64,000 bases of DNA from Nitrosopumilus sp. (lineage in GTDB: Archaea > Thermoproteota > Nitrososphaeria > Nitrososphaerales > Nitrosopumilaceae): the NCBI GenBank assembly GCA_965206745.1, contig OZ242220.1, positions 1,664,001 through 1,728,000 on the forward strand, in the 5' to 3' direction. Both the position numbers and the translations under genes were made by a program. Below, in pieces: positions 22,682-47,834 of this stretch (its first letter is position 1; each line of letters opens with the position of its first letter). The notes beneath the pieces are model-generated. The model was not told the DNA's origin. It worked only from the letters and a program-made list of their open reading frames with translations, and ran no database searches.

Positions 22682-23260
22682 TCAAACTCTAACTCTACGG
22701 TTTTTCACATAATGGATTAGGAAAACTGCCAACATTACAGGCAGTGTCACTATGATTACAGGTAAAAGCAAATATGATTCAGAAGGGTATATTTCCCAAT
22801 AGCATTGTAAACTGTTTTGCTGTATGTAGGACTCATCTTCCTGTAATTGATGAATGCCCCAATAACAGAAAGGAGCACCCTCTACAACCATTCCAAATAT
22901 CATGAGTATCTGGATTGGTATGGTCAAACATATGAGAATTTTGACTATCTTTTTCACATAATGGATTAGGAAAACGTTCAACACTATGGGCATTGTTATT
23001 ATGGTTACAGGTAAAATGAAAAATAATTTAAACAAAGCACCTATCTCCCAAGTACATTCAATTGTTTCAACACTATTCCGATAAAGAAGATTGGAAGAAT
23101 TCCTATCTTCTGTCATATACTGCCCTATCTCATAACAGAAAGGAGAACCAGTAGCCGCCAGTCCAAGCGTCGCAGTCATCTGGATTGGCAGGCTCAAACA
23201 TATGAGAATTACGACTATATTTCTCATGTTAGTCCTTAGAAGGGTTCGAAGAGAGGCCAT
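22682..23260 (-). CDS. Two-TM variable-loop membrane protein, tandem two-domain fusion
   Basis: Two copies of ILICL.(I/L)PIQ...PFCY-(variable)-C.WEI...LPV.I.T.P. Confidence 0.8.
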   Translation of the reverse strand: MASLRTLLRTNMRNIVVILICLSLPIQMTATLGLAATGSPFCYEIGQYMTEDRNSSNLLYRNSVETIECTWEIGALFKLFFILPVTIITMPIVLNVFLIHYVKKIVKILICLTIPIQILMIFGMVVEGAPFCYWGIHQLQEDESYIQQNSLQCYWEIYPSESYLLLPVIIVTLPVMLAVFLIHYVKNRRVRV

Positions 23261-23484
23261 CTATTGTTCACTGCTAGTTTGGATCATTGCTTTGATTTAA
23301 CTGATTCATGATCTTGGCCAAACATAGTGTTCCACTCGACTCTGATTACAAATGATGAACAGAACGCCATGTTTGACCAGAGCCCCAGTTTAGGCATATG
23401 ACTAACTAATTTCCCAATAAAATTATTCACGTGATTTGCAGATCCATATTGTACATGACAGATCAGCTAAAACTGGAAAGAATC

Positions 23485-23763
23485 TCAAACTCTTTTATAG
23501 TTTTTTACAAAATGGATTAGGAAAACGTTCAACACTATGGGCATTGTTATTATGGTTACAGGTAAAACATTATATGATTTAAAAAAAGCATCTATTTCCC
23601 AAGAGCATTGAAAATAGAGGGGTTGTACAGATGCCTCACCTCTTTCATTTGGAGGATCATGATAATAATAACAGAAAGGAGCAGTATGTACAGCTATTCC
23701 CATTATCATGGATATCTGGATTGGTATGGTCAAACATATGAGAATTATGACTATCTTTTTCAT
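23485..23763 (-). CDS. Two-TM variable-loop membrane protein
   Basis: Same framework; loop CYYYHDPPNERGEASVQPLYFQC. Confidence 0.8.
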   Translation of the reverse strand: MKKIVIILICLTIPIQISMIMGIAVHTAPFCYYYHDPPNERGEASVQPLYFQCSWEIDAFFKSYNVLPVTIITMPIVLNVFLIHFVKNYKRV

Positions 23764-24015
23764 GTTAGATTATAGTTGTAAAAATGATCATCTATTATTC
23801 ATTGCTAGTTTGAACCATTGCTTTGATTTAACTTATCCATGGTCTTGGTCAAACTGGTCCACCCGTGCTCTGGCCACAAATGATGAACAGACCGCCATGT
23901 TTGACCAGTCCCAGTTATCTTTAGGTATAGAACTGACTAATTTTACAATAAAATTATTCACGTGATTTGCAGATCCATATTGTACATGACAGATCATCCA
24001 AAACTGGAAAGAATC

Positions 24016-24354
24016 TCAAACTCTAATTCTTCTTCTGTTTATCGCATAATAGATTGAGAAAACTATCAACACTATGGGCAGTGTTATTATGGTTAAAGGT
24101 AAAATTAAATATAATTTAAATAAAGCACCTATTTCCCAAGTACATTTAATTTCTATGTCAGAAAAAACCGCATGATTAGGATTGTAAGAATTCCTATCCT
24201 CTTCTGACATATAATCCCCTCTCTCATAACAGAAAGGAGAACCAGTACCCACCAGTCCAAACGTCATGGCTATCTGGATTGGTATGGTCAAACATATGAT
24301 AATTATGGCTATCTTTTTCGTGTTGGTCCTTAGAAGGGTTGAAAGAGAGGCCAT
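24016..24354 (-). CDS. Two-TM variable-loop membrane protein
   Basis: Same framework; loop CYERGDYMSEEDRNSYNPNHAVFSDIEIKC. Confidence 0.8.
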   Translation of the reverse strand: MASLSTLLRTNTKKIAIIIICLTIPIQIAMTFGLVGTGSPFCYERGDYMSEEDRNSYNPNHAVFSDIEIKCTWEIGALFKLYLILPLTIITLPIVLIVFSIYYAINRRRIRV

Positions 24355-24513
24355 CTGTTATTCACTGTTAATCTAGATCATTGCTTTGATTTAACTGATC
24401 CATGATCTTGGTCAAACTGGTCCACCCGTGCCCTGGCCACAAATGATGAACAGAACACCATATTTGATCAGAGCGATATAAAATATAAAAACTAGAATAG
24501 AGAAATCAAACTG

Positions 24514-26163
24514 ATGTATCTTGCACTTTGTGTGTTGTTGGTAGTAGCATTTGTACCTGCAGTGTATGCCGAACCGTGGAGTCCCTACTCCATAGAACGG
24601 CCACGTGCTGCAGTCTTTGAGATGCCTGACAAGCTTGACGGATTTGCGACAGGACGAGGATGTGACCGCATAGTTCTTCCGGAGGCAAAGACACAAGATG
24701 TATTTGTATATGAAAAAGATGACAAACTTGTAGACCCTACTCGTGACCCTTGGGATGACAATGGCACACTCATTTATGCGTACGATAAAGCCCAACTTTT
24801 AGTCAGTCAGGGAGCAGGCGAGACACTGATAATGCACGGGGATCAGGTGCCACAGTGGACTAGCGTATGCAAGTATGCAGGAAGGAATTATGTTGTAGAT
24901 AATGCAGATTATTACATAAGGAACAGTTCGGGAACCGGACATTTTTTTGATCCATTCACGGGATTTCATCACACTGATTTTAACAGCATAACCAGCAATC
25001 CGTTCTCATCAAACCCCTTTGAGTATATGGGATACAGCTCTAGAGAGTGGCCAGGAAAACTCATAATTCTAACTGATCAGGGATATCAAATGTTTGGCAT
25101 TGCTGCCCGTGGTGCAATGTCTGTAGTGGCAGAGTATAGGCCGCTGGATTCCACGTTAAATCTCAGGGTGGAGGGCATATACAAGCCGTATGTAGGCCTG
25201 CAAATTAGTAATACGCCTGACTTTTTTGACTTTGATTCAGAAAAATACGATGGAGGCATACTAGTCAACGGCCAAGTAACTCCGATAGGACCTGCGTTCA
25301 TTCCTAAACGTGGTGATTCTTTTACAATAGATGTAAAAGATGAGGAATGGGCACGTGCATGTTGGTACTTGCCTTCCTCCACTTGCCTTTCAGTTACTGC
25401 AAACATGACAGAACAGGGATGGTCTGAGCTAAGCCGTGATGCGGTATGGAAAAAGGCATCAGAGTGGTACCATCAGATGTACGACCAGGACTATCTCAAG
25501 GAGTACGGACAGATACCAGAGCCAGACTATAGGCTTTATCTTCCGTTTTCCCTTAAGAACAGAGGGTTGGTGACATATCATGATGCAACACTTGACATAG
25601 AGATACCTCTAAAGATGAATAATAACTATACGTATACAAAAAACTATCCTGACATGGGATGGTGTCGCGCACCAATGGTTCTGGTTGCAAAGTCTTCAGA
25701 AGATCTGCTTGGTGCATGTGTGATGCCAGATACTGCACAGACACTCATTGATAGAAAATGGGCACAAAAGATGCCCGAATTATCAGAGCAAAAACACAGA
25801 GAGCTTGCCCGATTTTTGGCATACTATGGACTGCAGCATGTGCCGGGTACGGCAGACCCGCACGATGCATTCAAGGCAGCCCTTTTGGGACTGCCGCATG
25901 TCGATGACGTCCATGTTCTTGAGACGACGCCAGGATTCTCATACAGGGATAAAGATTATGCCAAACATTACGACCAGACAGAATACAAGGCAATAAAATA
26001 TCTCAAAGAGGCCAAACCGGGATTTCTTGATTCATTGCCCTATATCTGGAACTCGCCTGAGCCGATAGATGATGAAATAGTATGCATGAGAAAAACTAGC
26101 AATTACAAGTACCCTGATGAGGCATGCCCTCCATCTGTACCTGCCATGCTGGAATTACAGTGA
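24514..26163 (+). CDS. Secreted Tyr/Asp-rich protein, paralog of 35587..37269
   Basis: Signal peptide (…VPAVYA); long near-identical blocks with the paralog; C…ACV…L..RKW module. Confidence 0.85.
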   Translation: MYLALCVLLVVAFVPAVYAEPWSPYSIERPRAAVFEMPDKLDGFATGRGCDRIVLPEAKTQDVFVYEKDDKLVDPTRDPWDDNGTLIYAYDKAQLLVSQGAGETLIMHGDQVPQWTSVCKYAGRNYVVDNADYYIRNSSGTGHFFDPFTGFHHTDFNSITSNPFSSNPFEYMGYSSREWPGKLIILTDQGYQMFGIAARGAMSVVAEYRPLDSTLNLRVEGIYKPYVGLQISNTPDFFDFDSEKYDGGILVNGQVTPIGPAFIPKRGDSFTIDVKDEEWARACWYLPSSTCLSVTANMTEQGWSELSRDAVWKKASEWYHQMYDQDYLKEYGQIPEPDYRLYLPFSLKNRGLVTYHDATLDIEIPLKMNNNYTYTKNYPDMGWCRAPMVLVAKSSEDLLGACVMPDTAQTLIDRKWAQKMPELSEQKHRELARFLAYYGLQHVPGTADPHDAFKAALLGLPHVDDVHVLETTPGFSYRDKDYAKHYDQTEYKAIKYLKEAKPGFLDSLPYIWNSPEPIDDEIVCMRKTSNYKYPDEACPPSVPAMLELQ

Positions 26164-26556: not shown

Positions 26557-27015
26557 TTAATTTCCAGCAATCCAACGTTCCGGTTCTGTAGTGTGAAGAA
26601 TATCAAATACCGTTCCATTGTAATATGTCAGCGTGCAAGGTCCAATATGAGCAACTGACATTCCCCAATGAATAGTGCCCAATGAACACTCATAGATATG
26701 TTTTTGAAGGTCATAATTTTTTGTTACGTCCCAAGTGGCAATCTCTAAACATCGTCCTATGTATCCTATCTGGATACATCTCTCAAAAATAAAATCATAG
26801 AAACCCCCCGTATATCCCCATCCTCTTTTCTCAAGAATTTCTGCTGATTCAGTCCAAACACAGTGAATTTTGTCACTGTTGAATTTTTTCATGGTGATTC
26901 TATCTCGATCACAATCATATAGACTCTGGTGGTGATCATGAGCATAAGCTGGTATGACAATCATCCCGATAACTGATACTACAAGCAATCCCAGCACAAT
27001 CATTCCAGCCATCAA
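26557..27015 (-). CDS. Secreted Cys-rich protein, tandem duplicate 1
   Basis: Signal peptide …IPAYA; C…HCV…LEKRGWG module; near-identical to 27221..27679. Confidence 0.8.
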   Translation of the reverse strand: MMAGMIVLGLLVVSVIGMIVIPAYAHDHHQSLYDCDRDRITMKKFNSDKIHCVWTESAEILEKRGWGYTGGFYDFIFERCIQIGYIGRCLEIATWDVTKNYDLQKHIYECSLGTIHWGMSVAHIGPCTLTYYNGTVFDILHTTEPERWIAGN

Positions 27016-27220: not shown

Positions 27221-27679
27221 TTAATTTCCAGCAATCCAACGTTCCGGTTCTGTAGTGTGAAGAATATCAAATACCGTTCCATTGTAATATGTCAGCGTGC
27301 AAGGTCCAATATGAGCAACTGACATTCCCCAAGGAATAGTGCCCAATGAACAATCAGAAATATTTTTTTGAAATTCATAATTTTTTGTTATGTCCCAAGT
27401 GCTACCCGATGAACATCGTCCTATGCCTCCAAAATTAATACAATGATCTAAAATAAAATCATAGAAAACCCCCGTATATCCCCAGCCTCTTTTCTCAAGA
27501 ATTGCTGCTGATTCAGTCCAAACACAGTGAATTTTGTCACTGTTGAATTTTTTCATGGTGATTCTATCTTGATCACAATCATATGGACTCTGATGGTGAT
27601 CATCAGCATAAGCTGGTATGACAATCATCCCGATAACTGACACTGCAAGCAATCCCAGTACAATGATTCCAGTCATCAA
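27221..27679 (-). CDS. Secreted Cys-rich protein, tandem duplicate 2
   Basis: 664-bp tandem duplication including the upstream region. Confidence 0.8.
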   Translation of the reverse strand: MMTGIIVLGLLAVSVIGMIVIPAYADDHHQSPYDCDQDRITMKKFNSDKIHCVWTESAAILEKRGWGYTGVFYDFILDHCINFGGIGRCSSGSTWDITKNYEFQKNISDCSLGTIPWGMSVAHIGPCTLTYYNGTVFDILHTTEPERWIAGN

Positions 27680-30378: not shown

Positions 30379-31860
30379 ATGACTAATCTAGTATTTTTTG
30401 GAGCTGGCGCATCAAGACCATTTGGAATCCCAACAATGCAAGCAATGGTAATTGAATTTGAAAAAACGTTAAAAGATGATCATCCGGACCTGTTTCAATT
30501 TTATTCCAAGATAAAAGAGACATTGATTCAAGAATATGGAGAATCAAAAATAGATATTGAATCAATGCTATCTGTAATTAATGGAATTGCTGCAAATACA
30601 AAGCCTACTGAACTAGGCCATTTTGTATTTTATTACTTGGCTGATAATTGCTCTCGTAAGGAATTTCCTTCTGATGAGATAGAACTTGGAAAAAAATTAC
30701 AAACACAGTTACAGGATTTTATAAAAAAAGCATGTAAAATAAATCGAGATGATATTGATAAGATATATCGTAGATCATATTTGCCTTTGTTTGAACACAT
30801 GGGTCCAAGCAAAAAGAATTATGGTGAAGAAGAATTATCATATGATTGGAAAGCCTATACAACAAACTATGATAATATTTTTGAAGGTTTTTGGAACCAG
30901 TATGACTCACCAAATGATCATTTTGAAAAAATTGATGCTTCTGATAATCATTATTTCAATATTAAACCATTAGGAACAGTGCATACTTTTTGCAAATTAC
31001 ACGGATCATTGGATTGGACAAAGGAAGTGAATACACACATAATAATACGAAAAACACATTCAGGGTTTGAACGTATTAAAACAAAAGGTGAAATAATGTT
31101 GTTTCCAATACAACAAAAGGATCTTTACTTGCATCCTTGGTTTACTCTGTTTCAAGACTTGAAATTAGGATTATCACAAAAAATAATATGGTATGTAATA
31201 GGATATGCATTTAATGATGAATTTATTAGAAATGCATTCCAAGAATCACTTGTAGATAATTCTAATAAAAAATTAGTTATAATTAATCCAAAGGCAGAAC
31301 AGATTAAGAATAAATTTCAGGATTCCATCAAAAAACAAATTGACGTATTGCCTATAAAATTTGGCGATAGATTGTTTGAACTACAATTTGAAGATTATGT
31401 CAAAAAAACAAAAACAATAGTCTTAAGATTTTCTAATGAAAATAATCCCGTAGAAATCTATGATATAGCAATAAAAAGCAATCACAATATACAATCATAC
31501 GAGATTCTCAATGATGGTGTGGATGTTTTAGATTCAAATGGAAATATTAATGCTAAATATATGTCTAATACAAATAAAAAATCTATGTATTTTGAAATAC
31601 GAAATCCAAAAGTTGCAAAGATAAAATTAGAATTAAAAATTGATCACATGTATGATGATGAGATTGAATTGTATATTTCAAATAATACTAAAGAGTTGAA
31701 TATGGATATAGATTATGGAGGAATAAGGATTGCAAGTTCTAATGATATAGTACAGGATTATGTGATGGTAGGAGGTACAAAAGGGCGGAAGAATACAATA
31801 TGGATGAAATATCCAATAATATTGGATAAAACAAAATTTTTTGGAAATATTGAAGTGTGA
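30379..31860 (+). CDS. SIR2-like domain defence protein
   Basis: FFGAGAS..FGIP, TTNYD, KLHGSLDW, IGYAFND; unknown beta-rich C-terminus. Confidence 0.85.
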   Translation: MTNLVFFGAGASRPFGIPTMQAMVIEFEKTLKDDHPDLFQFYSKIKETLIQEYGESKIDIESMLSVINGIAANTKPTELGHFVFYYLADNCSRKEFPSDEIELGKKLQTQLQDFIKKACKINRDDIDKIYRRSYLPLFEHMGPSKKNYGEEELSYDWKAYTTNYDNIFEGFWNQYDSPNDHFEKIDASDNHYFNIKPLGTVHTFCKLHGSLDWTKEVNTHIIIRKTHSGFERIKTKGEIMLFPIQQKDLYLHPWFTLFQDLKLGLSQKIIWYVIGYAFNDEFIRNAFQESLVDNSNKKLVIINPKAEQIKNKFQDSIKKQIDVLPIKFGDRLFELQFEDYVKKTKTIVLRFSNENNPVEIYDIAIKSNHNIQSYEILNDGVDVLDSNGNINAKYMSNTNKKSMYFEIRNPKVAKIKLELKIDHMYDDEIELYISNNTKELNMDIDYGGIRIASSNDIVQDYVMVGGTKGRKNTIWMKYPIILDKTKFFGNIEV

Positions 31861-34095: not shown

Positions 34096-35124
34096 TTGGC
34101 ATATGTCGTGCTTGTGCTACTGGCAGTATTGGCAGCTGGAGTTTTGGCGCCTGCATTTGCAGAATATATATCTCCTGCCAAACAGGTGCGTGATGGCATA
34201 CCATTAAACCAAATTCAATGTAATAATCAAAGAATTCTTCTCGAATCGCCTGCTGGCAGACCTGCATGCGTGTTTGTCGGTACTGTTGAAAAGCTATCTC
34301 AACGCGGATGGAATGTTGTTTTTTTTCTAAAACCTGCAACTGACACGCCAACTGACATAAAATCAATTTACAAAGAATTGCCATCATTGGTAGAAATGCT
34401 AGCAACAGATAAAAAAACAATACCGTTACAAAAAATACGCGATGAGCTGCTAATGCTTTCAGAATTGACAGAGAATTCAGGATTAGATGAGAGTATAGCT
34501 GGAACAGACTATGAAAATATAATGGCCACAGGTAATACCCACATAAAAAGTGAACTGAGTCTATGCAATAAACCCCTAACTAATCATAATAATGCTACAT
34601 TATTATCTTGCACTTACATTTTAGCTTTTGTAAGAAATGTAGAATTTAATCATTTATACGAAGTGATGAGTGAAAAATATGAGGCTGATCCAACATATGT
34701 TGATAATGCAAGCAACTATACACTTGACATTCGGGATTATACAAGTGTCCGTGATCCATCATACATTTATGAAACAGGCAATTATACAGATCCACGGGCT
34801 ATAGAAAGACTACATAATTATTCTGATAGCATTAAACGATTCGACAAATATGCAAAATTTTACTTGAAATATAACGATCTAATGAAGGATATCAATAATA
34901 GAGTACGGGGATGGGAAGCGGAAACAAAATCCAAGGTTGTTGAAACATTTTATGATAAAGCCGAGGAAGTAAAGGATTTAACAGTGAGAACAGGACTTAA
35001 AAATGCAATAAAAAGTTGTGATATACACAATTGGTTATATGTCTATGACAAACAAACGCTAAAATTTTCAGAACTGCTCACGTGTCTTAGGGATGCAAAT
35101 GAGAAATACGGTAATAGTGAATAA
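34096..35124 (+). CDS. Secreted protein with thaumarchaeal SPxKQ...C...CV...KL..RGW module
   Basis: Signal peptide …APAFA; SPAKQVRDGIPLNQIQC…PACV…EKLSQRGW. Confidence 0.8.
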   Translation: MAYVVLVLLAVLAAGVLAPAFAEYISPAKQVRDGIPLNQIQCNNQRILLESPAGRPACVFVGTVEKLSQRGWNVVFFLKPATDTPTDIKSIYKELPSLVEMLATDKKTIPLQKIRDELLMLSELTENSGLDESIAGTDYENIMATGNTHIKSELSLCNKPLTNHNNATLLSCTYILAFVRNVEFNHLYEVMSEKYEADPTYVDNASNYTLDIRDYTSVRDPSYIYETGNYTDPRAIERLHNYSDSIKRFDKYAKFYLKYNDLMKDINNRVRGWEAETKSKVVETFYDKAEEVKDLTVRTGLKNAIKSCDIHNWLYVYDKQTLKFSELLTCLRDANEKYGNSE

Positions 35125-35231: not shown

Positions 35232-35411
35232 ATGGCAGAATCCCTTGATGACAGGCCCCCTCTGGAACCGCCTATAATTTACTATGACGAGGAGTTCCAC
35301 CCTGTCGAAAAACGTGAGGATGCAGCCTGGGAGAGAAAACTTGTCAGAGATGAGGAAGACGGCGAATTGGCCTTTGAGACTCTGCGAATCGATATGGAAT
35401 TTAACGAATAA
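35232..35411 (+). CDS. 59-aa acidic protein within a ~220-bp direct repeat (copy 1)
   Basis: MAESLDDRPPLEPPIIYYDEEFHPVEKREDAAWERKLVRDEEDGELAFETLRIDMEFNE; frame conserved in copy 2. Confidence 0.65.
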   Translation: MAESLDDRPPLEPPIIYYDEEFHPVEKREDAAWERKLVRDEEDGELAFETLRIDMEFNE

Positions 35412-35586
35412 TTCTCCAAACACAACAAGATACTTCCAAAAACCTCACATTTTACTTCTTTATAGATACCACACAGTAAGAATCTCAAATGGATAATCCT
35501 ACCAAAGAAGACTACATGGAGATGGAGAAACAAAAGAATGCCATGGAGCATTGAAAATCTCAATAAAGAATGGATGTTATTTTTTA

Positions 35587-37269
35587 TCACCGTGATATCA
35601 ACAGTGCAGGATCAGACGGAGGGCATGTCTCATCAGCTAATTTGTAATTACGGGTTTTCTTCATGCATACTATTTCATCATCCACTGGTTCAGGCGAGTT
35701 CCAGAGGTAGTTGCCTCCCAAAGGATGTATGGTAAGCTCTTTGAGATATTTTATTGGAGAGTGTACGGTCTGGTTGTAATATAAGGCATAGTCTTTATCC
35801 CTGTACGAGAATCCAGGCGTCGTCTCAAGAACATGGACGTCATCGATGTGTGGCAGTCCCAAGAGGGCTGCCCTGAATGCATCGTGCGGGTCTGCAGTGT
35901 CTGGCACATACTGCAATCCATAGTATGCCAAAACTTTGGCAAACTCTTTGCGTTTTTGCTCAGATAGTTCGGGTGTCTTTTGTGCCCATTTTCTGTCCAT
36001 GAGGGTCTGTGCAGTGTCTGGCATCACACATGCGCCGTGCGGATCCTCAGAAGACTTTGCAACCAGGACCATCGGTGCGCGACACCATCCCACTTCAGGG
36101 TAATTTTTCGTATACGTGTATTGGTTATTCATCTTTAGAGGTATCTCTATCTCAAGTGTCGCATTACGATATGTCACCAGTCCCTTGGCATCAGGTTCAT
36201 CGTATCGTAGATGGTACTCATAGTCAGGTTCTGGAATCTGCCCATACTCCTTGAGATAGTCCTGATCGTACATCTCATGGTACCACTCTGATGCCTCCTC
36301 CAGTATCTCATCATGGCTCAGCTCAGGCCACCCGTGTTCTGTCATGTTTACCATAACTGAAAGGCAGGCATGCGGCAGACGCAAACAGGGAATCGGAGTG
36401 ACTTTGCCGTTGACTAGTATGCCCCCATCATATTTTTGTGCATCAGGCTCAAAAAAGTTAGGTGTATCAGGCTCAAAAAAAGTAGGTGTATCATGAACTT
36501 TCAGGTTTATAGATGGACTGTATATGCCCTCTACCCTGAGATTTAATGTCAAATCATGTGGCCTATAGTCAGGCACTACAACCATCGCACCATATGTACT
36601 AATGTCAAATCCTCGATATCCCTGGTCAGTCAGAATTGTGATTCGTCCGCGCCAATCGTCAGGATAAGATCCCATAGATTCAAAAGGATTTGATGAAAAA
36701 GGATCGGTGTTATAATAGCTAGAAAAATGTATAAATCTCGTGAATGGATCCCAAAATTTTCCATTTGCTGCTTGATCACGTGTTCTATAATCTTCTCCTG
36801 CTATAATGTAATCCCTGTCTGCATACTTGCATGTACTAGTCCAATGTGGCACCTGATCCCCGTGCATTATCAGGGTCTCACCTACTCCCTGACTGACTAA
36901 AAGTTGGGCATCTCCGTACCGATAAACAGATGTGCCATTTACATCCAGGGATTTATTAGGATCTGCAAGTTCATATACAAATTGATCATATTCTGAATCT
37001 ACCATTGGTCGAACTATGTCGTGACATCCGTATCCACTTGCAAATCCGTCAAACCTGTCGGGCATCTCAAAGCCTGCAACACGGGGGCGATCTATTACCC
37101 ACAACGGCAGTTCAGCATGTACTGCAGGCACAAATGCCAATATCAGCAACATGCAAAGTATTAGATGCATCAATTTACCATTCCTTGTCCATCTGAGCCA
37201 TGATGCTCGGAGAATATGCAGATACGAATAAGGCAGATACAACAAACAAAATGGCAATTTTGGGGCCAC
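35587..37269 (-). CDS. Secreted protein, paralog of 24514..26163 (true start probably MHLILCML)
   Basis: Paralogy; internal 24-bp duplication DTPTFFEP/DTPNFFEP. Confidence 0.85.
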   Translation of the reverse strand: MAPKLPFCLLYLPYSYLHILRASWLRWTRNGKLMHLILCMLLILAFVPAVHAELPLWVIDRPRVAGFEMPDRFDGFASGYGCHDIVRPMVDSEYDQFVYELADPNKSLDVNGTSVYRYGDAQLLVSQGVGETLIMHGDQVPHWTSTCKYADRDYIIAGEDYRTRDQAANGKFWDPFTRFIHFSSYYNTDPFSSNPFESMGSYPDDWRGRITILTDQGYRGFDISTYGAMVVVPDYRPHDLTLNLRVEGIYSPSINLKVHDTPTFFEPDTPNFFEPDAQKYDGGILVNGKVTPIPCLRLPHACLSVMVNMTEHGWPELSHDEILEEASEWYHEMYDQDYLKEYGQIPEPDYEYHLRYDEPDAKGLVTYRNATLEIEIPLKMNNQYTYTKNYPEVGWCRAPMVLVAKSSEDPHGACVMPDTAQTLMDRKWAQKTPELSEQKRKEFAKVLAYYGLQYVPDTADPHDAFRAALLGLPHIDDVHVLETTPGFSYRDKDYALYYNQTVHSPIKYLKELTIHPLGGNYLWNSPEPVDDEIVCMKKTRNYKLADETCPPSDPALLISR

Positions 37270-39109: not shown

Positions 39110-39862
39110 TTGAAGAGATCCATCCTGTACATTGCAGTCTCACTGGCAGTAATTATCGGTGCAGGCGCATGGGTAATAATGTCACAAAACCCTGAATCTC
39201 CGGCTGAAATCTACATCGAGGAGAACGCTCTGGTCTATCACGGCGATATCAACGAGTCAAGCTATGAGAAGCTAAAGATGATGATGGATGAGAATCCGGG
39301 CATCGAAACCCTTGAGATAAGGTCACTTGGCGGGGACACCATAGCGGGCAAAAAGATTGCAAGGATGATATTTGAAGAAAAGCTCAACGTGGCAGTTGAT
39401 ACCATCTGTTTCTCATCGTGTGCCAACTACATATTTCCAAGCGGGGCACAGAAATTCATCCTAGAGGACGGCATTGTCGGCTGGCACGGCTCGGAACTAC
39501 AGTTTGAAGTCCTCGCAGAGATAATGGACAAGCCTGCCAGGGAGATCGTAAAGGAGATGGTACTCGAAGAGTCCCAGAGCAATCCTCTGTACCCTACCCC
39601 CACTGAGGAGGAGATAGAGGAGATATACCAGACGCTCGTAAAGGACCAGGAGGACGAGATAAGATTCTTTGAGATGATCAATGTGGATATAGATGTGACA
39701 CTAAACGGGCTGCGCCATATAGTTGAGAATGAGGAATGCATTGGGTGGGCCCACTCCATAGAGGACATGAACATGTACGGGATTAACGACGTGTTTTATC
39801 TCTCAGAGGAGTCATACCCTGACGAGTCAGCACTGTCCGAATACGGCATCTGCCTGATTTGA
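39110..39862 (+). CDS. Membrane-anchored ClpP/crotonase-like protein (COG3904-like putative peptidase)
   Basis: N-terminal TM; IRSLGG, CFSSCANYIF, VGWHG. Confidence 0.65.
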   Translation: MKRSILYIAVSLAVIIGAGAWVIMSQNPESPAEIYIEENALVYHGDINESSYEKLKMMMDENPGIETLEIRSLGGDTIAGKKIARMIFEEKLNVAVDTICFSSCANYIFPSGAQKFILEDGIVGWHGSELQFEVLAEIMDKPAREIVKEMVLEESQSNPLYPTPTEEEIEEIYQTLVKDQEDEIRFFEMINVDIDVTLNGLRHIVENEECIGWAHSIEDMNMYGINDVFYLSEESYPDESALSEYGICLI

Positions 39863-40013: not shown

Positions 40014-41747
40014 TTATGCAGGATTCGAGATTCGTCCCATGAACAGGATCATTCCACTCTCATCATCCTGTATGACAAATAGAAATGGATGATCGGCGAT
40101 GAATTTGGGTGGGGGTGGGGGGGTGGGTGATACTGATTCAATTGTAGAAATAATAGTAGTTACAGCTGCCGCCTCGGTTCCTTCCTCATTTACCTTTACA
40201 TATGCATCTTGAACTGCCTCGGTTACATGCAGATTCCCACCGTTAGTGGATCCAATGCCTGATAAATCCGCATCACCACTAGAAAAAACATCAGGCATGC
40301 CCATTGCAGTCAGGTGATTACCTAATTTGTAATTTGTTCTTGTCTCAAATTTCGGAATCGAGACTATTACCTCCTGATTCCATAGGTTATCAGTCCACTT
40401 TTGTATCTGTTGGACCGACAGAGACTCTTCAAACTGTCTCATATCCGGATCGTCAGGTAAAATTACCAGCATGGATAACCGGTCACCCTCATATGGCATC
40501 TTTAGTACCTTGGCACCATCTGAATATACATAATTGAACATACTAACAACATTCATAAAATCTGTATTGACACTTTGCGTGTCATCTGTATAAAACTCTG
40601 ATTTTTTTGTATCCTCCTCTGCAAACTGTGTCAACCAGGTTCCCTTGAAATAGATTGCATTGTTTATCACCATTGCTGTATCTCCGTTTACATCACTTTT
40701 TCTTATTACCTCGGTAATCTTGCCGTGGGTTTTCTCAGCAGCCCAATCATTTATTCTATTTATACTGTCATCCTCATCTGAAAAGTTCACTGTCTGTGCA
40801 TCTGCAAGGTATGTGCTCCGTGTAATATCAAGATAGGATTCGTATGGTGCAAACCAGTTTGCAATCCACAGTGCGTTTGCCATATTTAGTGTTGCGTAAT
40901 CATCATCACGATTCAGTGAGGATAGTGCATGGGCTGTGGCGTTGTGTCGTGTGAGTATGTCTGATTCAAATCCAAAGATATCCTCCATCTGCTGTGCTGT
41001 GTTTTCTTTGGCACCCTCGTACAAAAGCGAGAATGCGACATACAAGCTGGCAGGCGAATAGAATATGTTATTGCCTTCTTCTGCATCCAGAATTTGCTTG
41101 TAAAAGTCGACTGCAAATTCATTGTTTGCAGAGGATATGGATTCTGGGATTGTCTGTGTCCCGTTCTGTGATACGGCATCTACTGTAACTAGGGCGTTTG
41201 GAGGTGGTGTTTGGCTCGGGGTAGTAGGAGACGAAGTGTATGTCTGTGGTGTTTGGCTTGGAGCTTCCGGAGACGAGGTGTCTGTCTGTGCTGTTTGGTT
41301 TGAATCTGCAGGGGATAGAGTATCTGTCTGTGCTGTTTGGTTTGAACCCAATTGCTTAACCGGTCCAACCAGCTCCACATGATACGGAATATCACCAAAT
41401 CGTTCCTTCAATCCTGTCATTACATCATTAAACGCATATTCACAATCTTCACATATTCCTATGTATAACGTATCTATTCCATCAATGCTCATGATACCTA
41501 ACATGTTGATAGGTACACCATCAAACACACTTGCAATAGGATCAGTACTATTACCATAGAATACATCACCCATAATGGCATCTGCTTGCAACAATTCATC
41601 AGATATCCCAACGCGTTCAATATAGACAGAATCTTCTTCAGGTATCGTTTGTACTGTTTGTACCGTCTGTACCATTGCTGTTAATCCTATAAACGAGATT
41701 GACACCAATACGGCTGTTAAAATTATTATTTTCTTACTAGATACCAA
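40014..41747 (-). CDS. Serpin (type A N-terminus with acidic CEDC domain and S/T/P linker)
   Basis: NIFYSP, NAIYFKGTW, VNEEGTEAAAVT hinge, FIADHPFLF, ILFMGRI. Confidence 0.95.
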   Translation of the reverse strand: MVSSKKIIILTAVLVSISFIGLTAMVQTVQTVQTIPEEDSVYIERVGISDELLQADAIMGDVFYGNSTDPIASVFDGVPINMLGIMSIDGIDTLYIGICEDCEYAFNDVMTGLKERFGDIPYHVELVGPVKQLGSNQTAQTDTLSPADSNQTAQTDTSSPEAPSQTPQTYTSSPTTPSQTPPPNALVTVDAVSQNGTQTIPESISSANNEFAVDFYKQILDAEEGNNIFYSPASLYVAFSLLYEGAKENTAQQMEDIFGFESDILTRHNATAHALSSLNRDDDYATLNMANALWIANWFAPYESYLDITRSTYLADAQTVNFSDEDDSINRINDWAAEKTHGKITEVIRKSDVNGDTAMVINNAIYFKGTWLTQFAEEDTKKSEFYTDDTQSVNTDFMNVVSMFNYVYSDGAKVLKMPYEGDRLSMLVILPDDPDMRQFEESLSVQQIQKWTDNLWNQEVIVSIPKFETRTNYKLGNHLTAMGMPDVFSSGDADLSGIGSTNGGNLHVTEAVQDAYVKVNEEGTEAAAVTTIISTIESVSPTPPPPPKFIADHPFLFVIQDDESGMILFMGRISNPA

Positions 41748-41930
41748 TGCAAATCAAACATTCTGAAAATATATAACAATGTCGAATGATTTGATCCTGA
41801 AGTTTGGGTGTATTGTTCAGATCACTTGTGGAAGAATTTGAGAACGCTCCAATCTGGCAAGTGAAACCTCCATTCAATTAAACAGTGTACATCTGATCAC
41901 TAATCTTGATCAGAGCCTATCAGTACAGAC

Positions 41931-43595
41931 TTAGGATGCAGGATTCGAGATTCTCCCCATGAACAGGATCATGCCGCTCTCATCATCCTGTATGACAAAT
42001 AGAAATGGATGATCGGCGATGAATTTGGGTGGGGGCGGAGGTACTGAGGTATACACAGATATAATAGTAGTCACGGCTGCCGCCTCGGTTCCTTCCTCAT
42101 TTACCTTTACATACGCGTCCTGAACAGCCTTGCTCACATACAGATTTCCACCTTCAGTGGATACAATGCCTGACAAATCTGCAACACCACTGATAAAAAC
42201 ATCAGGCATTCCCATTGCAATCAGAGGATCATTTAATTGGTATTTTGTTCTTGTCTCAAATTTTGGCATCGAGACTATTAACTCCTGATTCCACAGGTTA
42301 TCAGTCCACTTTTGTATCTGTTGGGCAGACAGAGACTCTTCAAATTCTCTCATATCCGGATCGTCAGGTAAGATTACCAGCATGGACAGCCTGTCACCCT
42401 TGTACGGCATCTGAAGCACTTTAGCACCGTCTGAATGGGTGTAGTTAAATCCACCTCTCATATTCATAAAATCTGTATTGACACTTTGCGTGTCACCTGT
42501 ATAAAACTCTGATTTTTTTGTATCCTCCTCTGCAAACTGTATCAGCCAGGTTCCCTTGAAATAGATTGCATTGTTTATCACCATTGCTGTGCCTCCGTTT
42601 ACATCATTTTTGCCTATTACCTCGGTAATCTTGTCATTGGTTTTCTCAGCGGCCCAATCATTTATCCTCTTTACACTGTCATTTTCATCTGTAAAGTCCA
42701 CTGTCTGTGAATCTGCAAGATATGAGCTTCGTGTAATATCAAGATAGGATTCGTATGGTGCAAACCAGTCTGCAATCCACAGTGCGTTTGCCATGTTTAG
42801 TGTTGCGTAATCATCATCACGGTTCAACGAGGATAGCGCATGGGCTGTGGCGTTTTGTCGTGCAAATGCGTCTGATTCAAACCCAAAGACATGTGCCATC
42901 TGCTGTGCTGTATTTTCTTTGGCACCCTCGTACAAAAGCGAGAATGCAACATACATGCTGGCAGGTGAATAGAATATGTTTTTGCCTACCTCTGTATCTA
43001 GAATTTGCTTGTAAAAGTCGACTGCAAATTGATTATTTGCAGAGGATATGGATTCTGGGATTCTCTGTGGTCCGTTCTGTGATACGGCATCTACTGTAAC
43101 TAGGGCGTTTGGAGGTGGTGTTTGGCTTGAATCTGCAGGGAGTCGAATGCCTGACTGTGCTGTTCCATTGGAATCCATGTACCATGGAGCAGGCAATGGT
43201 TGAGCCGGTGGAATCATCTCCACATAATATGGAATATCGCCAAATCGTTCCTTCAATCCTGTCATTACATCATTAAACGCATATTCACAATCTTCACATA
43301 TTCCTATGTATAACGTATCTATTCCATCAATGGACGCGATACCTAACATGTGAATAGGTACACCATCAAACACACTTGCAATAGGATCAGTACTAGTACC
43401 AAATAATACATCAGTCATAATATGCTCTGCTTGCAACAATTCATCAGATACCCCAACGCGTTCAATATAGATAGAATCTTCTTCTTCAGGTATCGTTTGT
43501 ACTGTTTGTACCGTTTGTACCATTACTGTCAATCCTATAAACAAGATTGACACCAATACGGCCGTTAAAATTATTATTTTCTTACTAGATACCAA
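41931..43595 (-). CDS. Serpin (type A)
   Basis: Same serpin motifs; RCL TTIISVYTSVPPPPP. Confidence 0.95.
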   Translation of the reverse strand: MVSSKKIIILTAVLVSILFIGLTVMVQTVQTVQTIPEEEDSIYIERVGVSDELLQAEHIMTDVLFGTSTDPIASVFDGVPIHMLGIASIDGIDTLYIGICEDCEYAFNDVMTGLKERFGDIPYYVEMIPPAQPLPAPWYMDSNGTAQSGIRLPADSSQTPPPNALVTVDAVSQNGPQRIPESISSANNQFAVDFYKQILDTEVGKNIFYSPASMYVAFSLLYEGAKENTAQQMAHVFGFESDAFARQNATAHALSSLNRDDDYATLNMANALWIADWFAPYESYLDITRSSYLADSQTVDFTDENDSVKRINDWAAEKTNDKITEVIGKNDVNGGTAMVINNAIYFKGTWLIQFAEEDTKKSEFYTGDTQSVNTDFMNMRGGFNYTHSDGAKVLQMPYKGDRLSMLVILPDDPDMREFEESLSAQQIQKWTDNLWNQELIVSMPKFETRTKYQLNDPLIAMGMPDVFISGVADLSGIVSTEGGNLYVSKAVQDAYVKVNEEGTEAAAVTTIISVYTSVPPPPPKFIADHPFLFVIQDDESGMILFMGRISNPAS

Positions 43596-43867
43596 TGCAA
43601 ATCAAACATTCTGAAAATATATAACAATGTCGAATGATTTGACCCTGAAATTTGGGAGTTTTGTCAAGTGTGTTAGACATCAAATATGGATTCTTTGAAT
43701 TCAAACTCTGAGAATGGCTCGGATCATAAATGGTGATCTGATCACTAATCTTGACTAGAACCGAGTGGAACATTGTTTGACCAAGATCATGGATCAGTTA
43801 AATCAAAGCAATGATTCTAGCAGTGAATAATAGATAGCCTTTTTTTCAACCCTTCTAAGGTACTAAC

Positions 43868-44140
43868 ATGAAAAAAATAGTCGTAATTCTCATATGTTTG
43901 ACCATACCAATCCAGATACTCGTGATATCTGGAATAGTTCTAAAGGGTGCTCCTTTCTGTTATATGGGTGCTCCTCCATTACAGGAAGGTATGGCTACAA
44001 CACAGCAATATAGTTTGCAATGCTATTGGGAAATATACGCTTCTGAATCATATTTGCTTTTACCTGTAATCATAGTGACACTGCCTGTAATGTTGACAGT
44101 TTTCCTAATCCATTATGTGAAAAACCGTAGAAGAGTTTGA
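43868..44140 (+). CDS. Two-TM variable-loop membrane protein
   Basis: Loop CYMGAPPLQEGMATTQQYSLQC; flanked by P sites. Confidence 0.8.
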   Translation: MKKIVVILICLTIPIQILVISGIVLKGAPFCYMGAPPLQEGMATTQQYSLQCYWEIYASESYLLLPVIIVTLPVMLTVFLIHYVKNRRRV

Positions 44141-44305
44141 GATTCTTTCCAGTTTTAGTTGATTGGTCATACAGAAATGGATCTTCAAATCATATGAATA
44201 ATTTTATTGCGAAATTATCAGTCAATTATATGCCTGAAGATGACTGGGACTCATCACAAACGGTGATCTGATCACTAATATTGACTAGAGCCTATCAGTA
44301 TCGAC

Positions 44306-45637
44306 TTAGGATGTAGGATTCGAGATACGTCCCATAAATAGAATCATTCCGCTCTCATCATCCTGTATGACAAATAGAAATGGATGATCGGCGATGAATC
44401 TCGGTAAAGGAGGTGGGGCAGATACGATTGGAGAAACAATAATGGTAGTCACAGCTGCCGCCTCGGTGCCCTCTTCATTTACCTTTACATACGCATCATG
44501 AATTGCCTGGCTTACAAACAGATCTGCAAATCCAATGCCTGACAAATCTGCACCACCACGGGTAAAAACATCAGGCATCCCCATACTAGCTAGGGGACCG
44601 TTTAAAGAATATTTTGTCTTTGTCTCAAATTTTGGCATCGAGACTATTACCTCCTGATTCGACAGGTTATCTGTCCACTTCTGTATCTGCTGGGCAGACA
44701 AGGACTCTTCAAACTGTCTCATATCAGGATCGTCAGGCAAAATTACCAGCATGGACAGCCTGTCACCCTTGTACGGCATCTGAAGTACCTGGGCACCGTC
44801 TGAATGGATGTAGTTAAACGCACTTTTCACATTCATAAAATCTGCATTGACGCTGTCTGTGGAGTTTGTATGAAACTCTGATTTTTTTGTATCCTCCTCT
44901 GCAAACTGTGTCAACCAGGTTCCCTTGAAATAGATTGCATTGTTTATCACCATTACTGTATCTATGTGTACATCACTTTTTCTTATTACCTCGGTAATCT
45001 TGTCATTGGTTTTCTCAGCGGCCCAATCATTTATCCTCTTTACACTGCCATCCTTATCATCTCCAAAGTCCAATGTCTGTGCCCCTGCAAGGTAGGTGCT
45101 GCGTGCAATATCCAGATAGGATTCGTATGGTGCAAACCAGCCTGCCATCCACAGTGCGTTTGCCATTTCTAGTGTTGCATAGTCATCATCACGGTTCAAC
45201 GAGGATAGTGCATGGGCTGTGGTGTTTTGTCGTGCAAATGCATCTGATTCAAACCCAAAGACATCCTCCATCTGCTGCGCTGTGTCTTGTTTGGCACCCT
45301 CGTACAAAAGCGAGAATGCGACATACATGCTGGCAGGTGAGTAGAATATGTTTTTGCCTTTTTCTGCATCCAGAATTTGCTTGTAAAAGTCGACTGCAAA
45401 TTCATTGTTTGTAGAGGATATGGATTCTGGGATTGTCTGTGGTCCGTATTGTGATACGGCATCTACTGTAACTAGGGCATTTGGAGGTGGTGTTTGGCTC
45501 GGGGTAGTAGGAGACGAGGTGTCTGTCTGTGCTGTTTGGCTTGGGGCTGCAGGAGACGAGGTGTCTGTAGAACTAAACAATGCAATTGAGGCTGCAACTA
45601 GTACTGCACATATTGCAACAATGACGAGTTTATTCAC
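44306..45637 (-). CDS. Serpin (type B short N-terminus)
   Basis: Serpin motifs; RCL TTIIVSPIVSAPPPLP. Confidence 0.95.
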   Translation of the reverse strand: MNKLVIVAICAVLVAASIALFSSTDTSSPAAPSQTAQTDTSSPTTPSQTPPPNALVTVDAVSQYGPQTIPESISSTNNEFAVDFYKQILDAEKGKNIFYSPASMYVAFSLLYEGAKQDTAQQMEDVFGFESDAFARQNTTAHALSSLNRDDDYATLEMANALWMAGWFAPYESYLDIARSTYLAGAQTLDFGDDKDGSVKRINDWAAEKTNDKITEVIRKSDVHIDTVMVINNAIYFKGTWLTQFAEEDTKKSEFHTNSTDSVNADFMNVKSAFNYIHSDGAQVLQMPYKGDRLSMLVILPDDPDMRQFEESLSAQQIQKWTDNLSNQEVIVSMPKFETKTKYSLNGPLASMGMPDVFTRGGADLSGIGFADLFVSQAIHDAYVKVNEEGTEAAAVTTIIVSPIVSAPPPLPRFIADHPFLFVIQDDESGMILFMGRISNPTS

Positions 45638-45793: not shown

Positions 45794-47107
45794 TTAGGAT
45801 GTAGGATCCGAAATTCTCCCCATGAATAGGATCATGCCGCTCTCATCATCCTGTATGACAAATAGAAATGGATGATCGGCGATGAAGGAAGGTGGTTGCG
45901 GTTGTTCTGACGTAGATTCAATAAGAAGAGCAGTTACAGCTGCTGCCTCTGTTCCTTCCTCATTTACCTTTACATAAGCACCTTGAGTTGCCTTGCTCAC
46001 AAACAGATTCCCACCTGGAGAAATTCCAATCCCTGTCAAATCCGCATCACCACTAGAAAAAACATCAGGCATTCCCATTGCAATTAGATGATCATTTAAT
46101 TGATAGTTTGTCCTTGTCTCAAATTTTGGCATCGAGACTATTACTTTCTGATTTGACAGATTATCAGTCCATTTCTGTATCTGTTGGGCAGACAGAGACT
46201 CTTCAAACTGTCTCATATCAGGATCGTCAGGCAAAATTACCAGCATGGACAGCCTGTCACCCTTGTACGGCATCTTTAGTACCTTGGCACCGTCTGAATG
46301 AGTGTAGCCAAATATATTTTCTTCATTCATAAAATCTGCATTAACACTGTCTGTGGCATCTGTATGAAACTCTGATTTTTTTGTATCCTCTTCTGCAAAC
46401 TGTATCAACCAGGTTCCCTTGAAATAGATTGCATTGTTTATCACCATTGCTGTATCATTGTTTACAGTGTTAGGTCCTATTATTTTTGGAATCTTGCCAC
46501 GAGTTTTTTCTGCCGCCCAATCATTTATTCTATCTACACTGTCAGTCTCATCTTCAAAGTCCACTGTCTGTGAATCTGCAAGGTATGTGCTTCGTGTAAT
46601 ATCAAGATAGGATTCGTATGGTGCAAACCAGTCTGCAATCCACAGTGCGTTTGCCATTTCTAGTATTGCGTAATCATCATCACGGTTCAACGAGGATAGT
46701 GCATGTGCTGTGGCGTTGTGTCGTGCAAATGCGTCTGATTCAAACCCAAAGACATCCTCTATCTGCTGTGCCGTGTTTTCTTTGGCACCCTCGTACAAAA
46801 GCGAGAATGCAACATACAAGCTGGCAGGGGAATAAAATATGTTTTTGCCTGATTCTTCATCCAGAATTTGCTTGTAAAAGTCGACTGCAAATTGATTGTT
46901 TGCAGAGGATATGGATTCTGGGATTCTCTGTGGTCCGTTCTGTGATACGGCATCTACTGTAACTAGTGCGTTTGGAGGTGCTGTTTGGCTTGGGGTAGCA
47001 GGGGATAGGGTGTCTGTCTGTGGTGTTTGGCTTGAGTCCACATAGTACAATGCAACAGTGGCAACGACTAGTACTGTACATATTGCGACAATGATGCCTT
47101 TGTTCAT
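45794..47107 (-). CDS. Serpin (type B)
   Basis: Serpin motifs; RCL TALLIESTSEQPQPP. Confidence 0.95.
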   Translation of the reverse strand: MNKGIIVAICTVLVVATVALYYVDSSQTPQTDTLSPATPSQTAPPNALVTVDAVSQNGPQRIPESISSANNQFAVDFYKQILDEESGKNIFYSPASLYVAFSLLYEGAKENTAQQIEDVFGFESDAFARHNATAHALSSLNRDDDYAILEMANALWIADWFAPYESYLDITRSTYLADSQTVDFEDETDSVDRINDWAAEKTRGKIPKIIGPNTVNNDTAMVINNAIYFKGTWLIQFAEEDTKKSEFHTDATDSVNADFMNEENIFGYTHSDGAKVLKMPYKGDRLSMLVILPDDPDMRQFEESLSAQQIQKWTDNLSNQKVIVSMPKFETRTNYQLNDHLIAMGMPDVFSSGDADLTGIGISPGGNLFVSKATQGAYVKVNEEGTEAAAVTALLIESTSEQPQPPSFIADHPFLFVIQDDESGMILFMGRISDPTS

Positions 47108-47209
47108 TAAACGATTACTCCATATGGCTTATGCTCGACATTGTCCCCCATCAGATATGATAACCCAAAAGATGTGTGCTCCTGCAGAAACAAACGAGGC
47201 ATCAATGCA

Positions 47210-47370
47210 GTTATTATTTTCTTATTAAATATCAATGCAAATCAAGCATTCTGAAAATATATAAGAATGTCGAATGATTTGATCCTGAAGTTTGGGTATA
47301 CTGTTTAGATCACTTGTGGAAGAATTTGAGAACATTTCAATCTGACAAGTGAGACCTCCACTCAATTAAC
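47210..47370 (-). pseudogene. Orphan promoter and first codons of a deleted type A serpin
   Basis: Matches 41722..41880 and 43570..43655, with no serpin body following. Confidence 0.65.
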
Positions 47371-47418
47371 AGAGCCTTGAAAAGATATATGTAAATATTT
47401 TCAAAAAAGAAGATAGCC

Positions 47419-47556
47419 ATGCCAAAGTTCTCGAGCCAACTTGAAGCATTAGAAATTCTAAGCGATGCTGAACTGATCAATGAATTAACACAGAGTAGTA
47501 AAGAAGCTAAAAAAGGCAGGACAGTGCCATGGAAGGAAGTAAAGATTTCTGCATGA
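47419..47556 (+). pseudogene. C-terminal fragment of a RelB/Phd-like antitoxin
   Basis: LEALEILSDAELINELTQSSKEAKKGRTVPWKEVK; upstream in-frame NRALKRYM* is broken by a stop; the stop overlaps the next ATG. Confidence 0.5.
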
Positions 47557-47834
47557 AAAATATAGGCGAAATTCTCATATGTTTAACCATACCACTCCAG
47601 ATATCCCTGATGCCGGGAATAATTCTAAGTGATGGTCCTTTCTGTTATTATGGCAGTCTTCCATCTCCATTTCCAGAGCTTTACAATATTCCCTCTGTCG
47701 AAGTTACTCTATGTTCTTGGGAAATAAGTGCCTTTTTTGAATCATATTCGGTTTTACCTGTAACTATAATAACACTGCCTGTAATGTTGGCAGTTTTCCT
47801 AATTCATTATGTGAAAAACCGTAGAAGAGTTTGA
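47553..47834 (+). CDS. Two-TM variable-loop membrane protein
   Basis: Start MKNIGEIL by alignment; loop CYYGSLPSPFPELYNIPSVEVTLC. Confidence 0.8.
   Translation: MKNIGEILICLTIPLQISLMPGIILSDGPFCYYGSLPSPFPELYNIPSVEVTLCSWEISAFFESYSVLPVTIITLPVMLAVFLIHYVKNRRRV

Follow-up and report, generated by a model that had tools for sequence, protein, structure and literature searches.

A lineage-restricted family of small, predicted two-helix membrane proteins with a variable cysteine-bracketed segment in Nitrosopumilus

Conopeptide precursors have conserved ends around a hypervariable central peptide with fixed cysteines, and their cores diverge strongly at synonymous as well as non-synonymous sites. Among phage proteins, the T4 Imm protein is a small superinfection-exclusion and immunity protein with two transmembrane (TM) helices, and the class II holins are proteins of about 90 amino acids in which two TM helices are joined by a short turn, both termini lie inside (N-in/C-in) and the C-terminal tail is basic. 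Here we describe a family of predicted two-helix membrane proteins encoded in a 64,000-nucleotide stretch of a Nitrosopumilus genome (contig OZ242220.1, hereafter C1, positions 1664001–1728000; the window). By resemblance, its closest analogues would be the conopeptide precursors in evolutionary pattern, and the phage two-TM exclusion proteins and class II holins in size and topology; the likeness does not amount to membership of any of these families.

The family itself is new; the phenomenon that it shows, in which gene conversion holds the framework of a multigene family alike and an exposed segment diverges, is already known. No family in Pfam, NCBIfam or PADLOC was assigned to any of the five window proteins. 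The sole PHROGs match was to gene A (E = 0.047), the best match by PDB sequence profile had E = 0.55, Foldseek returned no match in the PDB, and the best ESM Atlas score was 0.86, which is below the useful range (none reached 0.9). Literature searches, which did not cover supplements, returned no description of this small-protein family.

Gene structure, predicted topology and distribution

The genome comprises 1.86 Mb in two contigs, is 99.6% complete and encodes an archaeal AmoA, and the host is therefore an ammonia-oxidising archaeon. As the original prediction had it, five open reading frames (ORFs) of the window carry six domains with a common framework; all were found in place, and the alignment agrees. 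The minus strand carries genes A, B and C as a tandem array. Gene A (22682–23260, 192 aa) contains two family domains in frame, A1 (residues 1–102) and A2 (residues 103–192), with four predicted TM helices and inter-Cys loops encoded at 23057–23134 and 22805–22864, respectively. Gene B (23485–23763, 92 aa; loop 23608–23670) and gene C (24016–24354, 112 aa; loop 24145–24228, 28 aa) have one domain each, in gene C preceded by an 11-residue N-terminal extension. On the plus strand are gene D (43868–44140), with one domain of 90 aa and a loop at 43961–44020, and gene E (47529–47834), with 101 aa as listed and a loop at 47646–47711. The true start of gene E may be the ATG at 47553, giving 93 aa, because its relatives P0016–P0018 begin MKNIGE. 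The junction of the two domains in gene A (22955–22960) resembles an in-frame deletion between the tail of one unit (..GTG AAA AA..) and the start of the next (ATG AAA AA..), and the same two-domain fusion was found in another genome (P0001).

The domains are 90–112 aa long; each has basic ends, two hydrophobic helices and, between two invariant cysteines, a net-acidic segment of 20–28 residues. The six-domain alignment has 24 invariant columns, including those of I.ICL..P.Q, PFC, C.WEI and LP..I.T.P..L.VF.I, and a mean column identity of 58%. Inter-Cys segments of 26, 20, 21, 28, 20 and 22 residues were measured, which bears out the length range and the sequence variability first proposed for them, and the loop sequences quoted at that time were correct. 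A six-domain profile run against the genome, the framework search that the original prediction had called for, recovered every copy at E values of 1e-42 to 1e-48, and the resemblance is far beyond chance. Besides all window copies, it recovered a sixth intact gene (gene F, C1:1771388–1771717) and a broken copy (C1:1457016–1457287) whose loop contains a deletion, a stop and a frame shift, both outside the window. Of the seven copies in the genome, six are thus intact.

Two hydrophobic stretches, each about 22 residues long, are present in every domain. The N-terminal segment holds one to four Lys or Arg residues and the C-terminal tail three to five, with at most one acidic residue, and basic termini around a net-acidic middle were seen in all 20 aligned members. 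By the positive-inside rule, this charge pattern predicts that both ends lie inside and the loop outside. In gene A, helix 2 is connected to the following helix 1 by KK alone, which agrees with a hairpin topology. An AlphaFold2 model of gene D, built from a 20-sequence alignment, placed helices at residues 2–26 and 65–89 and strands at 30–34 and 49–53, with one cysteine in each of the two paired strands (predicted local-distance difference test score (pLDDT) 64.9, predicted template-modelling score (pTM) 0.37); fused gene A gave the same helix–hairpin–helix pattern at lower confidence (pLDDT 52). The Cys pair is retained in every full-length member seen, the deepest relatives included, and an aromatic residue follows the first cysteine in all members. 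Four DsbA-like Thioredoxin_4 genes were found in the genome, and VKOR was searched for and not found. The membrane topology and the disulfide are thus predicted features. The earlier description of small two-TM proteins with basic termini and an outward, disulfide-closed loop agrees with the hydrophobic segments, the charges, the kept cysteines and the modelled hairpin, and its outward closed loop stands as a prediction at pLDDT 65.

For distribution, searching 5.8 billion clusters by word index yielded 20 proteins, and an exhaustive profile search of 1.84 billion representatives returned eight clusters at E ≤ 0.001, none longer than 192 aa. Among 150 other species of the genus, two (G015 and G371) had a match, in single copy each. 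Sixteen genomes from the order's other genera gave no match, and in a 400-genome family sample the only match beyond the genus was marginal and was judged to be noise. Marginal profile matches in G054 (E = 8e-4), in G435 (E = 4e-3) and at C1:915439 of the same genome (E about 0.05) were inspected and judged to be noise. The genome, metagenome and viral contig collections that were scanned contained no relative. Multi-copy relatives, known as proteins only, were assigned by an inferred grouping to three sister genomes, X, Y and Z, with four to six members each.

In a tree of 25 domains (P0004, P0020 and P0024 were left out), the single-copy species were separated (support 100/99) from all 21 multi-copy domains. 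The multi-copy domains formed three paralogue groups, each mixing the four genomes, so that the expansion is older than their split. The repertoires differ between the four genomes: the loop type of P0017 and P0018 was seen only in X and Y, and that of gene B was found in none of the relatives compared outside this genome. The single copy of G371 has a TenA/PqqC-like gene, a prenyl synthase and the nuo operon as neighbours, and that of G015 lies on a 2.4-kb contig. The broken copy at C1:1457016–1457287 occupies a locus syntenic with the G371 copy, in inverted orientation; the copy at the ancestral locus has decayed while those in the island described below are intact. Gene structure, distribution and evolutionary pattern are shown by the genomes and proteins compared.

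Sequence variation, gene conversion and selection

Variation is concentrated between the cysteines, in agreement with the original prediction. Column entropy was 2.0 bits in the loop, 0.96 in helix 1 and 0.86 in the rest. Domains of this genome were compared with their nearest counterparts in X, Y and Z; nine of 21 comparisons were kept (six or fewer framework differences, an arbitrary cut-off that leaves non-independent pairs), and in these the loop differed at 65 of 214 positions (30%) and the framework at 28 of 563 (5%). Gene D and P0012 differ at one of 62 framework and 10 of 20 loop positions, and A1 and P0001a at two of 63 and 17 of 28.

At the DNA level, mean pairwise identity was 0.91 in the first half of helix 1 and 0.77 in the juxtamembrane stretch, helix 2 and tail, compared with 0.56 in the loop, for which the shuffled baseline was 0.48 ± 0.04. 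The 150 nt upstream had a mean identity of 0.69 (0.71–0.85 without pairs with E), as had the 170 nt downstream (0.69; 0.67–0.84 without pairs with F). Because these non-coding flanks are more alike than the loops, loop variability is not by itself a demonstration of positive selection. Gene conversion keeps the framework alike: over helix 2, the DNA of A1 matches neighbouring gene B at 100% identity, while the 5′ half of A1 follows C, and A2 and D are 96–100% identical from the second cysteine into the 3′ flank. At the protein level, segment types have also been recombined between genomes, P0017 being composed of an E-type helix 1, a novel loop and a B-type helix 2.

Codon counts were crude (Nei–Gojobori, over short recombining segments). 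For three disjoint close pairs, the loop had a proportion of synonymous differences (pS) of 0.25 and of non-synonymous differences (pN) of 0.27, a ratio of 1.1 (pN/pS about 1.0–1.1), and over all 21 pairs it was saturated at both kinds of site. The comparison of loop and framework rates proposed by the original prediction therefore gave, as far as a test compromised by saturation, indels and gene conversion can tell, a neutrally evolving loop, the outcome that had been named as speaking against it; positive selection on the loop is not demonstrated. The 14 codons leading up to PFC, which encode the outer half of helix 1, had 0 synonymous and 20 non-synonymous differences over three disjoint pairs (Fisher p = 0.002), and one and 23 with an alternative pair set. 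The juxtamembrane, helix-2 and tail region had a pN/pS of 0.7. The clearest sign of adaptive change is thus in the outer half of helix 1, not in the loop. The helices also carry conserved Pro, Gln, Thr and His residues, and the idea that they are an inert scaffold had to be given up.

A loop ratio near 1 raises the alternative that the helices are the working part, for example as an accessory or regulatory subunit on a membrane complex, and that the inter-Cys segment is a tolerant linker that drifts almost neutrally, its hypervariability being a by-product of conversion around it. The linker account draws further on the helices with their conserved polar residues and prolines being the best-kept parts, on the demonstrable conversion tracts, on purifying values in the region after the loop and in the framework between G015 and G371 (dN/dS about 0.4), and on the housekeeping neighbours of the G371 copy. 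It gives no reason, however, for an invariant Cys pair and an aromatic residue after the first cysteine in all members, which a linker would not need, and it leaves unexplained the complete lack of synonymous change beside 20 replacements in outer helix 1, the growth to seven domains with strain-specific repertoires, and near-identical frameworks in which half or more of the loop has been replaced. We regard it as a serious alternative, although on balance a somewhat unlikely one.

Conservation around the genes includes several non-coding elements. A family-specific 41-nt element (43775–43815, plus strand) lies 53–93 nt before the start codon of gene D and contains a TTAAAT box-like motif; further copies are at 24377–24417 (100% identical), 23283–23324 (95%) and 23812–23854 (93%) on the minus strand. 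The element is 100% identical between C and D, the coding regions of which are about 73% identical, and it is absent before gene E and before the G371 and G015 copies. It may be a promoter or regulator site. A conserved 3′ non-coding flank, of which 44132–44217 (plus strand) is the start, can be aligned between units over about 170 nt, with copies at 22605–22690 (97%) and 47826–47911 (92% identical to the 22605 copy). Units are flanked by an imperfect palindromic repeat of about 48 nt (44242–44292, strand not assigned), which recurs at 43712–43762, 47930–47980, 22529–22579, 23334–23384, 22416–22466 and 41867–41917 and is present at about 38 loci genome-wide (62 nhmmer matches on both strands). 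Its hairpin folds have z values of −1.2 to −2.2, and it may be an element of the repetitive extragenic palindrome or miniature inverted-repeat transposable element type (REP/MITE-like), a terminator or a recombination hotspot. No Rfam RNA family was matched within the window.

Flanks conserved about as well as parts of the ORF, units bounded by a dispersed palindromic repeat, and a framework pN/pS near or above 1 among close paralogues would all fit a non-functional repeated DNA element that keeps an open frame by chance. This is extremely improbable, since the frame is open in six of the seven copies and, with the fragments P0020 and P0024 set aside, in each of the 18 full-length relatives recovered, and all indels, the loop length differences included, are whole codons. 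Moreover, Cys, Pro and Trp positions are invariant across deep divergence, and framework dN/dS between species is 0.36–0.72 (G015–G371, synonymous divergence (dS) 0.37 and non-synonymous divergence (dN) 0.16; G015–D, dS 0.83 and dN 0.30). The ORFs behave as genuine coding sequence.

Two known mechanisms of loop replacement were examined and rejected. For a variable protein of a diversity-generating retroelement, no reverse transcriptase and no template repeat were found; PF00078 had no match in this 99.6%-complete genome, with the control positive in three of 14 known genomes. Silent-cassette variation of the pilS or vls kind was rejected because no loop or partial-unit copies exist beyond the seven units: blastn of the seven loops against the genome found each only in its own gene, the C/F paralogue pair excepted, and other matches of loops and units were to the dispersed palindromic repeat and to serpin flanks. 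The original prediction had likened the proteins to a display scaffold resembling antibody complementarity-determining regions, which is not supported as a function. A related form of that idea, in which the genome would hold a library of membrane-tethered, disulfide-cyclised loops on a constant two-helix scaffold, renewed by cassette-like replacement between conserved flanks, each loop recognising or blocking a different external molecule (a virus entry protein, a protease or a toxin), is in our judgement distinctly unlikely.

Genomic setting: serpins, defence genes and proteases

Five paralogous genes for membrane-anchored serpins (Pfam PF00079, E values of 1e-117 to 1e-120) lie on the minus strand at 40014–41747, 41931–43595, 44306–45637, 45794–47107 and 47994–49589. 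Gene D is divergent from the serpin gene at 41931–43595 and convergent with that at 44306–45637, and gene E stands in the same way between those at 45794–47107 and 47994–49589, so that the two units form a repeated divergent arrangement of serpin and small gene on opposite strands. Genes A, B and C are 15.7 kb from the nearest serpin gene and adjoin defence genes, gene F is beside a TPR protein gene, and no small gene lies near the remaining three serpins of the genome. The proposed interleaving with serpins thus describes D and E (two of five window genes, two of six in the genome) and does not extend to A, B, C and F. The accompanying claim that the serpins vary in an analogous way was borne out, reactive-centre loops being more variable than bodies (body dS 0.24–0.37 and dN 0.08–0.10; reactive loop dN 0.2–1.1). 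The N-terminal linkers of the serpins contain 42-nt tandem repeats (14 aa, rich in Pro, Thr, Ser and Gln), with seven register-shifted copies in 47994–49589 and two in 40014–41747, which suggests stalks of variable length between membrane anchor and serpin body.

Such an arrangement could mean that the loops are membrane-tethered baits, substrates or modulators of serpin-controlled proteases. The repeated divergent unit, the parallel variation of the reactive loops and a ClpP/SppA-like protease gene (39110–39862) that adjoins the cluster are consistent with this, as is the presence of serpins in all three family-bearing species, G015 and G371 included, compared with 21 of 100 other genomes of the genus. 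However, the three species are kin, which makes co-occurrence weak evidence, and the family was found in none of five serpin-bearing genomes tested, three of them with 7–15 serpin matches (there was one marginal, broken match). Four of the six genes are not beside a serpin and three further serpins lack a small gene; where the two do adjoin, they are on opposite strands and hence not co-transcribed. In G371, the only other species with a readable locus, the nearest serpin is at least 0.57 Mb from the family copy, and serpin linkage as a general feature was accordingly abandoned. The analogy with serpins is fair and a functional tie is unsupported; we consider a serpin or protease partnership improbable.

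The protease encoded at 39110–39862 is a membrane-anchored protein of 250 aa that matches phrog_26024 ('protease', E = 9e-8). Its gene is convergent with the first serpin gene, 152 nt from the 3′ end of the latter, and a 51%-identical paralogue is present elsewhere in the genome; it is a candidate target of the serpins. A 250-nt direct repeat (35175–35424 and 49693–49942, 89% identical), each copy of which has a similar short ORF, brackets 14.5 kb with one WING-49 gene, the protease gene and all five serpin genes. The WING-49 domain (NCBIfam NF058652) occurs in five secreted, lineage-specific proteins (24514–26163, 26557–27015, 27221–27679, 34096–35124 and 35587–37269); the N-terminal part of the 342-aa one has 15 further tblastn matches in the genome, and the term WING-49 was not found in the literature searched.

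The window as a whole is a variable island. Dnd and defence-type genes extend to about 33 kb of it. A complete Dnd-type DNA phosphorothioation cluster (2589–10616) comprises DndB, a DndC of the 3′-phosphoadenosine 5′-phosphosulfate (PAPS) reductase type, a DndD-like SMC ATPase, DndE and a class-V aminotransferase, and is followed by two ParB-like genes. The defence-type genes (13430–21960 and 30379–31860) encode an Mrr_N protein, a protein with DUF2196 and Schlafen/AlbA_2 domains, a CARF-like protein (PADLOC CARF6, E = 9e-23) beside an ORC/CDC6-like ATPase fused to SIR2, and a second, SIR2_2 protein. Further on, a block at 49958–56600 has about 50% G+C, compared with about 41% in the genome, and several ORFs without a family; it also encodes an 861-aa HerA/AAA_10-like ATPase with a 15-nt tandem repeat in 12 overlapping copies (repeated KPDDT), and is probably an integrated foreign element. 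Expanded secreted serpins together with Dnd systems have been described in sponge-associated ammonia oxidisers, with one free-living exception (PMC6790972); the available passages of that paper contain nothing on these small proteins.

Proteases and protease inhibitors encoded nearby are also of interest for the possibility that the proteins are precursors of released peptides. Helix 1 would then serve as leader or anchor, with helix 2 as the pro-region or sorting signal, and cleavage on the outer side would release, or re-attach, a disulfide-cyclised peptide of about 20–35 residues acting as a signal, a bacteriocin-like agent or a protease inhibitor. Conserved flanks around a hypervariable, Cys-containing core, the pattern looked for in precursors of ribosomally synthesized and post-translationally modified peptides, were found here, with conservation extending into non-coding DNA; both helices contain conserved, helix-destabilising Pro residues, and the C-terminal order of motif, helix and basic tail is like that of sortase-type signals. 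On the other side, helix 1 ends in a single small-residue site (..GA|PFC) that is followed directly by Pro, which disfavours cleavage by signal peptidase I, no CTERM sorting-domain model of NCBIfam was matched at E values up to 0.1, and the purifying selection on helix 2 and the tail resembles that on a functional region. No maturation enzyme, peptidase or exporter was recognisable by Pfam or ORF reading beside any copy, that of G371 included, several neighbours being without any family. Archaeosortase PF09721 had no match in the genome, with the control positive in one of 14 genomes and missing Haloferax, so that the model may not see archaeosortases. We consider a released-peptide precursor unlikely.

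Proposed function and comparison with known systems

We infer that the proteins may be two-pass membrane hairpins with an outward variable determinant under antagonistic pressure from virus entry or from a membrane-directed toxin. The grounds are where the variation sits, the surplus of replacement changes in outer helix 1, repertoires that differ from strain to strain, the decay of the copy at the ancestral locus and the neighbouring defence island. Helix 1 would be an uncleaved signal-anchor with its N-terminus inside, leading to an acidic outer segment of 35–45 residues with a β-hairpin core closed by the Cys–Cys bond; a short conserved juxtamembrane stretch (C.WEI...), helix 2 and a basic cytoplasmic tail would follow. 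One ancestral gene would have multiplied within a single lineage, gene conversion preserving the likeness of the helices (conservation of the promoter region and of the 3′ flank would fit either conversion or recent duplication), while the outer half of helix 1 and the loop diversified or were exchanged between copies and strains. The constant hairpin might occupy or guard something in the membrane, its helices keeping the protein in place or binding a target there, and which external agent is met would depend on the variable outer face. The likeliest agents would be a membrane-directed toxin or a viral device for entry or injection. The family would then be an exclusion- or immunity-like determinant under antagonistic selection. 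We favour this account tentatively, as possible rather than probable.

Several observations weigh against it. The family matches no defence family in PADLOC and no viral family in PHROGs, and none was found in viral contigs; the G371 copy lies among housekeeping genes, which is atypical for a defence gene; and confidence in the AlphaFold2 models is low (pLDDT 65 and 52). A short loop at the membrane surface would sit under the S-layer, beyond the reach of large particles until the S-layer had been penetrated. The loop pN/pS of about 1.0–1.1 is the value expected of a tolerated linker, conversion tracts that stop at diverged sequence could yield high synonymous divergence in the loop without selection, and the signal in helix 1 comes from 14 codons in three pairs. 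The remaining probability is reserved for functions beyond those set out above.

Ammonia-oxidising archaea are globally important, and little is known of their dealings with viruses, neighbours and hosts. The family is either a surface-directed variable determinant or a case of gene conversion and local divergence that mimics one, and proteins of about 90 aa with one Cys pair and two helices are experimentally tractable. If the loops are specificity elements, the scaffold would be of interest for peptide-display engineering; if they are a drifting linker, the family is a warning against reading 'hypervariable loops' from paralogue alignments alone. Should the loops form a library after all, this would be a minimal germline-encoded display system without archaeal precedent.

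Among described systems, the hypervariable immunoglobulin (Ig)-domain gene module of Thermococcales, as presented in the available passages of PMC8416519, is likewise lineage-specific and exposed, with a proposed role in conflict or self/non-self recognition; its proteins are large and multi-domain with variable downstream genes, whereas those described here have about 90 aa, two helices and no associated module. With class II holins, the family shares two TM helices and, as predicted from hydropathy, charge and the modelled helices (2–26 and 65–89), an N-in/C-in topology and a charged C-terminus. It differs in a 35–45-residue connector with a predicted disulfide and in being a multi-copy set with variable loops. 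Identity as a class II holin was rejected, since no endolysin or virion genes lie beside any copy, there is no PHROGs match, none occurs in viral contigs and the connector is long. Proteins of the T4 Imm type are alike in their 80–100 aa, two TM helices and a plausible action at the membrane, and here the genes adjoin defence genes; unlike them, the present family has no sequence or profile similarity to such proteins (PHROGs, PADLOC), is chromosomal, has a housekeeping-type ancestral locus and would carry a long Cys-bracketed outer loop.

The neighbouring serpins (PF00079) also have a body that stays constant and an exposed loop that is short and hypervariable, have multiplied in tandem within this island and would, like the small proteins, be anchored in the membrane facing outside, but they are unrelated in fold and size, their body is clearly under purifying selection (ω about 0.3) and the linkage is not conserved. 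In evolutionary pattern, the conopeptide precursors appear closest. The present proteins are archaeal, both of their ends are TM helices, they have a single Cys pair, and the conservation of their flanks comes at least partly from gene conversion; what they would share with those precursors is a core that diverges at synonymous sites too, and the same pattern of conserved ends around a variable, Cys-framed core.

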